From Escherichia phage vB-Eco-KMB40, in the sequence record OR539220.1: 64,000 nt of DNA; one strand, given 5' to 3'. Below the pieces are notes generated by a model. It saw nothing but the letters and a program-made list of their open reading frames with translations. It ran no database searches and was not told where the DNA came from. The position numbers and the translations under genes were made by a program. Of the stretch, positions 19,680 through 35,571 are shown one piece after another (within the stretch, counting starts at the first letter, position 1; the number at the start of each line of letters is the position of its first letter).

Positions 19680-20024
19680 TTAAAAGAATTTAAACTTTTT
19701 CTTTGACCTTTTATTAAATGCATCTTGTAGTTGCATTGTAATACATTTTTCTACATGAGGAGCTAACTCAGCTTTTCTTTCTTGGTCAAGAACAGCAAAG
19801 TCCATTACAACCTTTCCATTAACCCAATCTAATTTTGTCACATACACAATGTGTGTAGAACCATCTTCTAGTTTAATGACAATCTCCTGGATAACATTTT
19901 CCATGGCAGATTTAATTATCTTAAGAGATTCATTAAAAAGACGTTCTTTTCTTTCTTCTTCCCCCTCCGAAGAGGGGGATTCATCGATAATTTCTAGATC
20001 TAAATCTAAATCATCTTTATTCAT
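19680..20024 (-). CDS. 40: gene 40-position protein (114 aa)
   Basis: position between 41 and uvsX; ATG at 20024, track start is GTG. Confidence 0.5.
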   Translation of the reverse strand: MNKDDLDLDLEIIDESPSSEGEEERKERLFNESLKIIKSAMENVIQEIVIKLEDGSTHIVYVTKLDWVNGKVVMDFAVLDQERKAELAPHVEKCITMQLQDAFNKRSKKKFKFF

Positions 20025-21198
20025 TAAATTCTTCCATATCACTTAACTGCTCGAGGTCAGTTTCTAAATCAGCAGCTGATTTACTTTTACTTTCTGGAGA
20101 TTTAAATTTTTCAACCTTTGAGTTAATCAATTCATCAACTTCAGCTTCAACAATTTCATTACTATCAATAGCACCTAACTGATAAGCACGCTTAATAGCA
20201 TCACGGAATGGTTGATGCTTAAATAAAGGACCCCAGAATGTAGTGCAGTTGGTATCTTTTGCACGCCAAGATTTTTCTTCGCGAATCATCTCGCCGGTTT
20301 CTTCATCAAGAAATTCACGAGCATACCAACCATTTTTAGGTTTTACCACGAATCCTAATTCTAGAGCCATATCTAACAATCCAGAATAAGGATCGATACC
20401 GCCGTCAAATTTAACATCAATAAAGAATTTACTTTTTTCTTTAACGGTACGAGATTTTTCTACATTTAGAACAAATTGATACCCTTGAAGATCAGAACCA
20501 TCTTTAATCTGACGTTTACCGATAATGAATACGGTATCAGCCGAATACATTACGCCTGTACCACCTGTCATCACGGTTTTACTAAACATTTCAATTGTTT
20601 CAATTGTATGGTTAACCGCAACACATGGAATATTTTTAATGCTAAAGTAAGGAGTAACAATACGGAATAATGACTTCAGTGATTTAGCACGAGTCATATC
20701 TGCCACAGATTTTTCATTCAAGGCATCTTCCGTTTCTTTCTTAGAAGCCATATTACCGATTGAGTCGATGAATACAATAACTTTTTCACCACGCTCAATA
20801 GCTTCAAGCTGATTCACCATATCAATTTTCAGCTGTTCAACTGACTGAATCGGCGTATGAATTACTCGTTCCGGGTCAACTCCCATGGATCGCAAATAAG
20901 CTGGAGTAATACCAAATTCACTATCATAGAATAGACAAACCGCGTCAGGATATTTGTTCAAATATGCCGCAACCATAGTCAAAGACATATTTGATTTAAA
21001 GTGTTTAGAAGGCCCTGCGAAAATAGTTAAACCAGACTGCATGCCGCCATCAATCGCACCAGAAATAGCAATATTAAGCATTGGGATTTTTGTACGGATT
21101 ACATCCTTTTCATTAAAGAATTTAGATGTAGTCAGTTCAGCAGTCATTTTAGAAGTGGAAGCTTTAATCAAACGGGATTTTAAATCTGCAATAGACAT
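20017..21198 (-). CDS. uvsX: UvsX recombinase, RecA-like (393 aa)
   Basis: N-terminus and Walker A GPSKHFKS match T4 UvsX. Confidence 0.9.
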   Translation of the reverse strand: MSIADLKSRLIKASTSKMTAELTTSKFFNEKDVIRTKIPMLNIAISGAIDGGMQSGLTIFAGPSKHFKSNMSLTMVAAYLNKYPDAVCLFYDSEFGITPAYLRSMGVDPERVIHTPIQSVEQLKIDMVNQLEAIERGEKVIVFIDSIGNMASKKETEDALNEKSVADMTRAKSLKSLFRIVTPYFSIKNIPCVAVNHTIETIEMFSKTVMTGGTGVMYSADTVFIIGKRQIKDGSDLQGYQFVLNVEKSRTVKEKSKFFIDVKFDGGIDPYSGLLDMALELGFVVKPKNGWYAREFLDEETGEMIREEKSWRAKDTNCTTFWGPLFKHQPFRDAIKRAYQLGAIDSNEIVEAEVDELINSKVEKFKSPESKSKSAADLETDLEQLSDMEEFNE

Positions 21199-21252
21199 TC
21201 ATTTTTTCCATAGGCATCATTATATTTTCCTCACTGGTTAAAGATAGAGTAA

Positions 21253-22119
21253 TTATAACACAATAAATTTAGGCATAACTGCTATCGGATGAATAGCATT
21301 AAACTTATGAAATGCTTCTGATTTTTCTTTGCGCGAAACACACATGCGAAGAACCTTTAATGGCTCGTCTTCTTCACCCAACGATTTTCGTTTTTCGATA
21401 TTAGAAGTTTTCCAACGAGCTTGCTCTGGAAACTCTCTATTGATTTGCTCAAGCGCTCTATTATGTTTAGAATTACTACGAATTGAACTGCACCCGCCAG
21501 GAGCTTGTGCTTTTCCAGATACAACCAGATATTTGAACAAGGCCAAATGCGGATAACCTTGATTAATTAAATTGAGAAATGCATACATATCTTCGCATAA
21601 ATCAATTTTTCCATACCCAATTTGTTCTGTCGTAAGTTTTCCGAGGTCATACCATGTATTCGTGAATCCATATGAATTTTCACGATAATTACCCCAAGAT
21701 GAAGTAATTTTAAAAATAGGTAGACGAGCATGGCCATGATAATACCCGCAATCCATGGCATCTTCGACGTATTGAATCAATTCATAGAACTGTTCACGGG
21801 TTAATTGATTGACTTTATCTACACAACGACGGTCATCTCTTTTTCGCATTGAACTCATACGAATAGTAGTATCATCGTCAATCATCCAGATTCGTTGACC
21901 TGCATACATATCAGTAATTGCTTTACGAGTACCGGCAATTCCGTTTACATCATCAGGAATAGTTATAATTTTAGCTCTAGACCCATAGGCATCATAATAA
22001 GCTTTTTCTTCATGTTCACGCACTACAATATGGGGTTCATAATCAGTCGGAAACATATCAAGGGCAGAAACTGCCCCGACACGCTGATAACTTGGAATTA
22101 CGAATTGAATCATTTCCAC
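21253..22119 (-). CDS. GT-A-type glycosyltransferase at beta-gt locus (288 aa); possibly beta-alpha-glucosyltransferase
   Basis: between uvsX and 42 where T4 has beta-gt, but sequence unlike T4 beta-gt as recalled; DxD-like IDDDTT motif. Confidence 0.5.
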   Translation of the reverse strand: MEMIQFVIPSYQRVGAVSALDMFPTDYEPHIVVREHEEKAYYDAYGSRAKIITIPDDVNGIAGTRKAITDMYAGQRIWMIDDDTTIRMSSMRKRDDRRCVDKVNQLTREQFYELIQYVEDAMDCGYYHGHARLPIFKITSSWGNYRENSYGFTNTWYDLGKLTTEQIGYGKIDLCEDMYAFLNLINQGYPHLALFKYLVVSGKAQAPGGCSSIRSNSKHNRALEQINREFPEQARWKTSNIEKRKSLGEEDEPLKVLRMCVSRKEKSEAFHKFNAIHPIAVMPKFIVL

Positions 22120-22850
22120 TCACCTTTATAGTCTTTTTTCACAATATGAGTTTCGCCAGTATTCCACCAATGATCAACCAAGTAAAAATGACGAGAATAT
22201 ACATGAAGACTTCCAACATTCCATATAATAGAACCTGCTTTATACTGACGAGTTGAATCGCCTGCATTCAAATCAGATACTAATTTATCTAATACGTATT
22301 TTTGCCATGCATAATCATTACGGAATCCGAAGACCACGTCATTTGAGCGCATGCTTACTACTGCATTGACTTTCTTATCACGAATCAGGTACTGTACTGT
22401 ATTAGTACACATGAAATCTGACATACCATCTTTATTGTAGTCAAATTGCATGGATGGACGAGTATAAATCATGATACCACGTCGAGAATCAGGATTTTGA
22501 CCAAGTTCAGCTAAACACATATCATACTGGGCATAGTTATCTTCTGACCAGATAGCCCAGCCATAATTCGAGTTAATTTCACCTTTAGAAGATGCTACTT
22601 GTTGCCAAATCTTCGGTGTTTCACCCGGAATATCTTTAACGAACAAGCTCTTAGATTTATACCATTCAAGTTCACGCTGAATGTATTCATCATTAAGAGC
22701 GCCAAAAATAAACGGTTCATCTGCTATAAATGATGCGCCAATAATTTCAATAGTTTTAACGCCAGTTTTATCAACTACGAAATCTTTTTCTTTTAATGCA
22801 AGCCCCAAATGAAGACGGATTTCTTCAACTGTCATAGAGTCACTAATCAT
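22110..22850 (-). CDS. 42: dCMP hydroxymethylase (246 aa)
   Basis: 246 aa, thymidylate-synthase-like; matches T4 gp42. Confidence 0.9.
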   Translation of the reverse strand: MISDSMTVEEIRLHLGLALKEKDFVVDKTGVKTIEIIGASFIADEPFIFGALNDEYIQRELEWYKSKSLFVKDIPGETPKIWQQVASSKGEINSNYGWAIWSEDNYAQYDMCLAELGQNPDSRRGIMIYTRPSMQFDYNKDGMSDFMCTNTVQYLIRDKKVNAVVSMRSNDVVFGFRNDYAWQKYVLDKLVSDLNAGDSTRQYKAGSIIWNVGSLHVYSRHFYLVDHWWNTGETHIVKKDYKGEWK

Positions 22851-22857
22851 TTAAACC

Positions 22858-23007
22858 TCAATTGATACATTCATATTTAACTTGTAACAGTAATAAACCC
22901 CAGCCTAAAATAATAGTTGGAATCATAAGAGGAACCGTTACACTATAGTATATACTTATTATAATCATCAAGATTAAAAGCAACACTGCTATAATTTTGC
23001 TTTTCAT
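22858..23007 (-). CDS. small membrane peptide (49 aa), not in ORF track
   Basis: MKSKIIAVLLLILMIIISIYYSVTVPLMIPTIILGWGLLLLQVKYECIN; ATG overlaps imm stop. Confidence 0.4.
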   Translation of the reverse strand: MKSKIIAVLLLILMIIISIYYSVTVPLMIPTIILGWGLLLLQVKYECIN

Positions 23008-23255
23008 TCCTTCTCTCTGATGATAATTACCTGATTTGGTTGTGCAGACTTTTTAGTTTCACCCGCAATTGACCAAATAAATGTAATAAACCAACCAATA
23101 ATTGACCAGTTAAACAGTAAAGATGTGAAAAAGATTCCTACTGTCGATTTTGACCCACGCATCAAGGCGATAAACCATGGAAGCATGTATATAATAATAG
23201 CCAACACACCTGAAACTAAAACCATAAAAATTGAACCTGCTACTAAAGTTTCCAT
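23004..23255 (-). CDS. imm: Imm superinfection immunity membrane protein (83 aa)
   Basis: 83 aa, two TM segments, position after gene 42. Confidence 0.8.
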   Translation of the reverse strand: METLVAGSIFMVLVSGVLAIIIYMLPWFIALMRGSKSTVGIFFTSLLFNWSIIGWFITFIWSIAGETKKSAQPNQVIIIREKE

Positions 23256-23262
23256 GTTTTCC

Positions 23263-23643
23263 TCACTTAGTCAAATTTTTTACACATGAATTATAAGAAT
23301 TCACTACATACTCCATCGGAGCATTTTTACCGGTACGCCATTGGTAATTATTAGCCCAATTAGCCCAAATTTCGGCGCAGTAGTTTTCAATTTTTTCTTC
23401 GCGTGTAATTACATCAGAATTACGATATGCTTGAGCAGATTCATCTGGACGAATAGCTTCGTCAAAATTCGCCTGCATTTGTTCTACTGTCTGTTTTGGA
23501 GCTTCTTTATAACACTTGACATTAGGATTATAAAATTTGCTTGAACAATTTACAATTTTTCCTACATCAGACTGATTTACTACCGGTCCTTGAGCTACAC
23601 AACCAGTAAGACCTAATGCAATAACCAAAATAGCGATTTTCAT
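23263..23643 (-). CDS. predicted lipoprotein (126 aa)
   Basis: signal peptide with lipobox LTGC. Confidence 0.5.
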   Translation of the reverse strand: MKIAILVIALGLTGCVAQGPVVNQSDVGKIVNCSSKFYNPNVKCYKEAPKQTVEQMQANFDEAIRPDESAQAYRNSDVITREEKIENYCAEIWANWANNYQWRTGKNAPMEYVVNSYNSCVKNLTK

Positions 23644-31874: not shown

Positions 31875-32729
31875 TCACAATGAAGAAAATTCTTTAACTA
31901 AAGCCTGTAATGAAGCCTCTATTGGATATCCATTCTTAACTAACATTTTCCTAAACATCACATGTTTAGGACGATTATATGATATCCACAATTCATACAA
32001 TTTATCTTTATTATCCCAATGATAGCCTTTTCGTCGAGATGCTATATGAGCTTTTCTAATCTCCGGATTTTTCCAACTAGCAGCTACTGAATTTGATATA
32101 GCTATTTTATATTCAGGTTTTGATAAAGCAGCACGAACAGCCTTTTGGTGTTTAATTTTATTTTCTTCGTTATTAAACCATTCCCTTGAAGCCATTGAAA
32201 TTTTTTGTTTTGTTTTAAAATTATTTAATCTTTCTTTGTTATCTTTCCTATTTTTTGCTACTGAAAAATATTTTAATGCCCTTTCTCTAGCAGCATTTCT
32301 ATTTTGCGGATTTGAATAATACTGTTGAAGTCTTTTTGATATTGTGTCACTTACATCTTGTTTTATAAAACTATACTCAGCAGCTATTAAATCAACTTCG
32401 GCTAAAGATAAATTTTTATATGTTTTTCCTGACATCATTCTATTTAAAGCATTTAGCATTTTTCCATTTTTACCTTTTGCTAATAAGAAATGTGCTTTAA
32501 AATGATTAAAATGACTTAAATTAACTAAATTCCATGTAGATTTTAAATATTCAGGAAATATTGATTTAGGAAGCACGTGGTGTGCTTCCGTTTTACCTGG
32601 AGTTTTAACAGTTGAATTCATAGAAATAAAATTAATGTAAGACTTGGCGTCTTCTTCACTCAACGCTAATTTTTCAACTAATTCCTTTATTAAAAATTCA
32701 TCATTAATGTCAAGTTTAAAATTCTTCAC
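31875..32729 (-). CDS. free-standing HNH homing endonuclease (284 aa)
   Basis: HNH motif EAHHVLP...NLVNLSHFNHFKAH; lies between 46 and 46.1; starts with GTG overlapping 46.1 stop (GTGA). Confidence 0.7.
   Translation of the reverse strand: MKNFKLDINDEFLIKELVEKLALSEEDAKSYINFISMNSTVKTPGKTEAHHVLPKSIFPEYLKSTWNLVNLSHFNHFKAHFLLAKGKNGKMLNALNRMMSGKTYKNLSLAEVDLIAAEYSFIKQDVSDTISKRLQQYYSNPQNRNAARERALKYFSVAKNRKDNKERLNNFKTKQKISMASREWFNNEENKIKHQKAVRAALSKPEYKIAISNSVAASWKNPEIRKAHIASRRKGYHWDNKDKLYELWISYNRPKHVMFRKMLVKNGYPIEASLQALVKEFSSL
32695..32713. repeat. 19-bp direct repeat copy A (aattcatcattaatgtcaa) at 5' end of HNH gene
   Basis: identical to 32898-32916; both encode FDINDEF-type N-terminal codons. 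Confidence 0.8.
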
Positions 32730-34352: not shown

Positions 34353-34370
34353 AAAGGGCCGAAGCCCTTT
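34353..34370 (-). terminator. intrinsic terminator hairpin after a-gt, possibly bidirectional
   Basis: AAAGGGC-cgaa-GCCCTTT perfect 7-bp stem with U-rich flanks on both strands. Confidence 0.6.
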
Positions 34371-35571
34371 ATTTTGTAATAATGTCAAACTGTTCTTTAA
34401 AGCAGAAGCTTGAATCTTGATGCTGATACAAAAATTCATAAGCTTTTTCGCGTTCGCGGTCATAAAGAGTTCGGTCAGATGACAGTTCTTTAATACGTTC
34501 AAATGTTGATTCCATGTCATTTTCATCAAACCAAATGATACCGCTATCATGCGAGGTCAAAGGAGTATTATCAACACGGAATTTTAAATTTTCGCCAGTA
34601 GATTTCCAAAATACCGGAATTGTTCCACATGCACCAAGCTCGAGATGAGTATATTCTAAAGAACGTTGTAGATATTTTTTATCCAACTTACTCAACTGAT
34701 AACCAAAACCGGATTTACTCATACGTTCAAGCATTTCGCTATTTACATAACGGTCAAGAATTTGCGTTGGCAAATTAGGAGCAATTTTAATTTGGTCTAC
34801 TTGATGAAGACGATAATACTCGTATGGAATTCCTTTTTCTTTAATAGGAATGAACGCTGGAGAACGTTCCAGACCTTCCATAATAGTACTTAGTCCTGCA
34901 GGTTTAAGATGTTTTTCATGAAAATCAAACATCTGATAAAAACCTTTCCATGTGGTCGTACGACCAATCCAACGGTTGATATTCATGTTAATTTCAGAAA
35001 CATCTTTCCAGTAGGTTGACCGAACCTTCGCAATATCCATAGGAGGCTGAAAGTTATATACTGTCGGTGCTTCTTCAATATCATCAAACAGAGAAACTGT
35101 TTCAGGATACCATTCTTTCATCAGAACTTTATTAAAATCACCATTATCAGAATGGCTAAAAATAACATCAGCTCGACGAACAGTTTCTTCTAATCCCAAA
35201 TTTCGACGCAAAGAAAGAGAAGAATGGTCATGTTGATAAACTACAACACGAACAGAAGGTTTAATGTTATCAATAATTTTTTTATAGTTATTAATAGTGT
35301 CTTCTTCAACCGAAGTAGCAGGAACTGAATTGATAATTAGAATATCACAATCATTTACCAGCTTAAGTGTTTTATCATATTCTTTTGCCAATAAAACCGG
35401 AATTGAAAATGATTTATAATCATGCGCGCAATTACGAGTAAATGATTTATCTTTAGCATAAACCAAAGTTACTTCATGACCATTCTTAATAAACCAATCA
35501 CGTTGCTCAAGAGAAAATTTAGTTACACCACAACCTTCAAGACCTCGAGCCATAAAAATACATACTTTCAT
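34369..35571 (-). CDS. a-gt: alpha-glucosyltransferase (400 aa)
   Basis: N-terminus ICIFMARGLEGCGVTKFSLEQRDWFIKNGHEV and 400 aa as T4 alpha-gt. Confidence 0.9.
   Translation of the reverse strand: MKVCIFMARGLEGCGVTKFSLEQRDWFIKNGHEVTLVYAKDKSFTRNCAHDYKSFSIPVLLAKEYDKTLKLVNDCDILIINSVPATSVEEDTINNYKKIIDNIKPSVRVVVYQHDHSSLSLRRNLGLEETVRRADVIFSHSDNGDFNKVLMKEWYPETVSLFDDIEEAPTVYNFQPPMDIAKVRSTYWKDVSEINMNINRWIGRTTTWKGFYQMFDFHEKHLKPAGLSTIMEGLERSPAFIPIKEKGIPYEYYRLHQVDQIKIAPNLPTQILDRYVNSEMLERMSKSGFGYQLSKLDKKYLQRSLEYTHLELGACGTIPVFWKSTGENLKFRVDNTPLTSHDSGIIWFDENDMESTFERIKELSSDRTLYDREREKAYEFLYQHQDSSFCFKEQFDIITK

Follow-up and report, generated by a model that had tools for sequence, protein, structure and literature searches.

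The gene between uvsX and gene 42 in the window (the whole 64-kb stretch of DNA that was analysed) almost certainly encodes a beta-glucosyl-HMC-alpha-glucosyltransferase (ba-gt) of the T2/T6 type, a GT-A-fold enzyme with a putative DxD-type motif that would yield gentiobiosyl-hmC after the action of alpha-gt. Its orthology, fold class, motif conservation and partner genes are established here, as is the absence of T4-type beta-gt from the 64 kb. It is an already known gene and not a new one, and it carries little weight as a discovery, the gene, its activity and its T-even locus all being long known. Recent papers have re-examined ba-gt by genetics, structure and LC-MS, and the use of the assignment lies in annotation and in the prediction of phenotype.

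The gene, its start codon and its protein family

The listing of open reading frames confirms a minus-strand frame at 21253-22119 that encodes 288 aa when counted from a GTG codon. The sequence-only reading, an earlier note made from the DNA letters, had assigned this length to the protein; the frame stands, but the true start is likely the ATG at 22113, two codons 3′ of the GTG, and the protein is thus likely 286 aa rather than 288 aa long. The 286-aa form is preferred because its ATG forms part of an ATGA overlap with gene 42 (Table 1), because the sequence AGGTGA, 6 nt 5′ of the ATG, gives Shine-Dalgarno spacing, and because the corresponding ATG is used as the start in every annotated ba-gt orthologue. 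The GTG at 22119 is rejected as the start on the same three observations. The identical 4-nt overlap of ba-gt and gene 42 is annotated in T2, NR1, QOTSP and a51, and its arrangement suggests that the two genes may be translationally coupled.

The gene order in the window is 41-40-uvsX-ba-gt-42-imm-43, with further open reading frames matching gp41, gp40, imm and gp43, and it matches the order in the annotated T2, T4 and T6 records when the gene in the slot is denoted X. Both the coordinates and this T-even order bear out the earlier placement of the gene between uvsX and 42. Unlike T4, the window has no segA between uvsX and the glucosyltransferase gene, as judged by tblastn with T4 segA over the full 64 kb. 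A scan of 20900-23400 for sigma-70 promoters and terminators returned sites not in excess of those in shuffled sequence.

Table 1. Positions in the window of ba-gt, its neighbours and partner genes, and the motifs of its product
Feature	Position	Strand	Remarks
uvsX (393 aa)	20017..21198	-	Downstream neighbour of ba-gt; from the ORF listing
ba-gt (ggt, TAGT) CDS	21253..22113	-	286 aa plus stop codon at 21253-21255; encodes beta-glucosyl-HMC-alpha-glucosyltransferase
Tail MPKFIVL, residues 280-286	21256..21276	-	Specific to the window; from DNA alignment with a51, NR1, T2 and T6
IDDDTT, residues 78-83 of the 286-aa protein	21865..21882	-	D79-D80-D81 invariant; directly after model strand 74-77
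IPSYQR, residues 6-11	22081..22098	-	End of the first beta-strand of the nucleotide-sugar-binding fold
ATGA overlap	22110..22113	-	ba-gt start (22111-22113) overlaps the gene 42 stop TGA (22110-22112); sequence read directly
Gene 42, dCMP hydroxymethylase (246 aa)	22110..22850	-	Supplies hmC; from ORF and identity
alpha-gt (400 aa)	34369..35571	-	Makes alpha-glucosyl-hmC, the acceptor for ba-gt; intact ORF

The protein is 99% identical to T2 ba-gt and 98% identical to T6 ba-gt over residues 1-279, and it matches PHROG 842, ‘beta-glucosyl-HMC-alpha-glucosyltransferase’, with an E value of 6.5e-89. It also matches the Pfam family PF20691 (TAGT, TET-associated glycosyltransferase) across profile positions 2-205 of 205, with a score of 38.9 bits that is weak when taken alone and is set against a gathering threshold of 27.5 bits; the T2 and T6 ba-gt proteins match PF20691 likewise. 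A search of NCBIfam with the protein returned no family. The identities and the two family matches support the earlier suggestion that the enzyme is not of the T4 kind but of the beta-alpha kind found in T2 and T6. Furthermore, megablast with the gene retrieved 478 phage records, which have it at the same locus and come mostly from Tequatrovirus phages of Escherichia, Shigella and Yersinia, of which 474 have at least 80% query coverage and nearly all are 90-99% identical. Many of these records label the gene beta-glucosyl-HMC-alpha-glucosyltransferase, always adjoining dCMP hydroxymethylase. NR1 and QOTSP are among the matches, at 98.1% nucleotide identity.

The weakness of the Pfam score, together with the finding that TAGT homologues can be accompanied by alpha-GT, by beta-GT or by neither, in a family that is probably functionally diverse (PMC13216743), would fit a TAGT-family transferase of other specificity, acting with another sugar such as arabinose or on another acceptor. 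We regard such a specificity as extremely unlikely. Apart from D24N and the C-terminal tail, the NR1/QOTSP enzyme is the same as the window protein; those of T2 and T6 are 98-99% identical to the window protein, and the DNA products of these phages are known. In addition, the hydroxymethylase-type gp42 points to an hmC pathway and not to the 5-hydroxy-dC/arabinose pathway of Mosigvirus.

Motif conservation and the predicted fold are in line with the T2/T6-type assignment. We aligned the ba-gt family using ten cluster representatives from a word-index homologue search, ranging from 99% down to 28% identity. Residues D79, D80 and D81 are invariant across all ten homologues, and the IDDDTT segment that contains them, noted already in the sequence-only reading as DxD-like, is indeed present and occupies the usual GT-A position after a strand of the predicted model (Table 1). 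The three aspartates form a putative DxD-type motif that would bind metal and UDP-sugar. Residues I6, P7, S8, Y9 and R11 are invariant as well, and a strand of the model is formed by residues 3-7. The predicted model, of moderate confidence (pLDDT 74.7, with low-confidence segments at 131-138 and 192-211), consists of one alpha/beta/alpha domain of Rossmann-like type, similar to GT-A enzymes of solved structure. A sequence search of all PDB chains returned no solved relative, the best match (E 1.6) being an unrelated protein.

The beta-gt slot of T4

Direct BLASTP between the window protein and T4 beta-gt detects no similarity (best E 2.3), and the two fall in different Pfam families, bearing out the statement in the sequence-only reading that they do not match. 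Specifically, the window protein has no match to PF09198 at E values up to 1, whereas T4 beta-gt itself scores 325 bits against PF09198 and also matches a GT-B family. A profile match to T4 beta-gt, which the earlier note had named as evidence against its own proposal, was looked for with a negative outcome. Moreover, tblastn found no homologue of T4 beta-gt anywhere in the 64-kb window.

These comparisons bear on the possibility that the gene encodes a divergent T4-type beta-glucosyltransferase, which would add a single beta-glucose straight onto hmC. Position is the one point in its favour, as T4 beta-gt lies between uvsX/segA and gene 42. Against it stand the lack of sequence similarity, the assignment of the window protein to PF20691 only, the match of its predicted model to GT-A and not GT-B folds, and the report that phages with ba-gt and without beta-gt have no beta-glucosyl-hmC (PMC13390438). 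We consider a T4-type enzyme to have a vanishingly small probability and to be effectively refuted already.

Alpha-gt together with the T2/T6-type enzyme is, in addition, the usual arrangement in Tequatrovirus. The combination of alpha-GT and TAGT is common, while that of alpha-GT and beta-GT occurs in 6/753 phage genomes, namely T4 and close relatives (PMC13216743), and a phage that differs from T4 at this locus is therefore typical and not exceptional.

A segment of T4 (NC_000866; L003:6239-6263) matches the last 25 nt of T2/T6 ba-gt, including the stop codon, at 24/25 positions (pairwise E 2e-09). It lies between beta-gt and segA, immediately upstream of the segA start. The match suggests a relic, according to which the T4 lineage would once have had ba-gt in this slot.

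Elsewhere in the window, a 284-aa open reading frame lies between genes 46 and 47, at 31875-32729 on the minus strand; T4 lacks it, and its identity to T6ORF054 is 99.6%. It weakly resembles MobB, an HNH homing endonuclease of T4 (32% over 98 aa), and is probably a mobile endonuclease insertion.

Partner genes and the expected modification of the DNA

The window carries both genes on which ba-gt would depend. Over its full length, alpha-gt shares 99.75% identity with T2 alpha-gt and 91% with those of T4 and T6 (tblastn), while gp42 is 98% identical to T6 gp42 and 97% identical to T4 gp42. No paralogue of ba-gt was found within the window. The alpha-gt is thus T2-like, while ba-gt carries the non-T2 residues R11 and P251, so that the affinities of the two glucosyltransferase genes are mosaic.

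In the proposed pathway, gp42 would make hm-dCMP, and the phage polymerase would then incorporate hmC into DNA; alpha-gt would add an alpha-linked glucose to hmC, and ba-gt would attach a further glucose, beta-1,6-linked and taken from host UDP-glucose, to give gentiobiosyl-hmC. The donor, acceptor, linkage and biological effect attributed to ba-gt here come from the literature on its orthologues, which add a beta-1,6-linked second glucose to alpha-glucosyl-hmC and thereby form gentiobiosyl-hmC (PMC11078745; PMC6024577; 2026 bioRxiv paper). The DNA of T2 holds ~70% alpha-glucosyl, 5% gentiobiosyl and ~25% bare hmC, and that of T6 ~3% alpha-glucosyl, 72% gentiobiosyl and ~25% bare hmC (PMC11078745; PMC6024577; 2026 bioRxiv paper). 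Upon deletion of ba-gt in T6, gentiobiosyl-hmC is lost and alpha-glucosyl-hmC is the only glucosylated form (PMC11078745), and the DNA becomes a substrate for Brig1 in vitro and also for BapA (PMC11078745; 2026 bioRxiv paper). The Durham Tequatrovirus phages encode alpha-GT and TAGT without beta-GT, and HPLC/MS of their DNA detects hmdC along with its alpha-glucosyl and alpha-gentiobiosyl forms, but not the beta-glucosyl one; in NR1 and QOTSP, about one-third is hmdC and about two-thirds is gentiobiosyl (PMC13390438).

With alpha-gt followed by ba-gt, the DNA of this phage should be a mixture of bare hmC (about a quarter), alpha-glucosyl-hmC and gentiobiosyl-hmC, with no beta-glucosyl-hmC. The sequence-only reading had proposed gentiobiosyl-HMC ‘or another modification’; the former agrees with orthologue genetics and with LC-MS on near-identical phages, and the latter is not needed. 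The gentiobiosyl fraction is probably high, resembling T6 and NR1 rather than T2, because ba-gt keeps R11 and P251, which are changed in T2; the extent of second-glucose addition is nevertheless not reliably readable from sequence, since the T2 and T6 enzymes are 98-99% identical yet give 5% and 72%, respectively.

By extension of published T2/T6 work, Brig3 and other hmC-specific glycosylases should be effective against the phage on account of its bare hmC. In vitro, gentiobiosyl-hmC is resistant to Brig1; in vivo, the phage should nevertheless stay sensitive to Brig1 in the interval preceding second-glucose addition. Enzymes of the GmrSD/BrxU type should still cut the DNA, and deglucosylation of the BapA type should fail at gentiobiosyl sites.

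The substitutions R11H and P251S are present in ba-gt of 3/3 T2 records (L002:4283-5125, L007:2286-3128 and L008:2295-3137). R11 and P251 are common to the window, NR1, QOTSP, a51 and T6, and the family alignment shows no variation at R11 and almost none at P251. This pattern suggests that T2 ba-gt may be hypomorphic through R11H/P251S, which would fit its low gentiobiosylation relative to T6. In the T6 record MH550421 (L001:4951-4953), a TAG occupies ggt codon 10 (Q10*), and the annotated CDS begins at M20 and encodes 261 aa. With a start at M20, the protein would lack its first strand together with the invariant IPSYxR motif. Q10* reflects either a mutation in the phage stock or an error in the sequencing of the reference record.

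The C-terminal tail and comparison with known glycosyltransferases

Alignment of the DNA with a51, NR1, T2 and T6 reveals that 5 bp (GATTA) are missing between 21276 and 21277 of the window. The deletion, the only feature of the gene that is specific to the window, eliminates codon D280 along with the stop codon TAA, and changes the end of the protein from ...IAVD to ...IAVMPKFIVL, with the last residue replaced and six added. An 86-base query spanning the site retrieved 446 records, 444 of them in the 90-95% identity band that a 5-bp gap produces, and the five extra bases are present in all matches listed. The 286-aa protein has no exact match in a public assembly collection of 15 billion proteins, which fits a unique tail.

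The deletion could be genuine, or it could stem from an error in sequencing. We expect the change of the tail to be neutral, because the model is of low confidence at the C-terminal end, whose length differs between homologues, and we infer that the window allele is active despite its changed end. That no other phage record among the matches listed has the deletion, and that the exact protein is missing from the collection, would also accord with a ba-gt orthologue whose deletion is an assembly error, or a lesion that lowers activity and leaves mostly alpha-glucosyl-hmC in T2-like DNA. However, the frame stays open with only the last residue changed, the C-terminal residues are probably flexible, and the conserved, putatively catalytic motifs are all intact; an erroneous or impaired allele is accordingly quite unlikely, and an active ba-gt remains the preferred reading.

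A sequence TGCCTAA-N11-TATAAT lies on the minus strand at 21252-21275, just downstream of ba-gt and upstream of uvsX. It resembles a MotA-dependent middle promoter, in which a TGCTTtA box is followed after 11-13 nt by a -10 element. At its upstream edge the sequence borders directly on the 5-bp deletion, and the sigma-70 scan did not report it. It is a speculative and rather doubtful proposal that the deletion alters the activity of the enzyme or the promoter-like element of uvsX and that the low gentiobiosylation of T2 results from R11H, possibly together with P251S.

Compared with known systems, the window enzyme is closest to ba-gt of T2 and T6, with 98-99% amino acid identity, equal length apart from the tail, and the same uvsX/gene 42 slot, ATGA overlap and partners alpha-gt and gp42. 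It differs from both in the end created by the 5-bp deletion, and from T2 in having R11 and P251 in place of H11 and S251. T4 beta-gt occupies the same genomic slot and, per the literature, both enzymes modify DNA, use UDP-glucose and form beta linkages. In contrast, T4 beta-gt is unrelated in sequence, adopts a GT-B fold rather than a GT-A fold with DxD, acts on bare hmC rather than alpha-glucosyl-hmC, and has 351 aa as against 286 aa. Among cellular GT-A glycosyltransferases, those near ba-gt are the GT2-like enzymes TarS, cellulose synthase and GlfT2, and also the GT27 enzyme GalNAc-T1.
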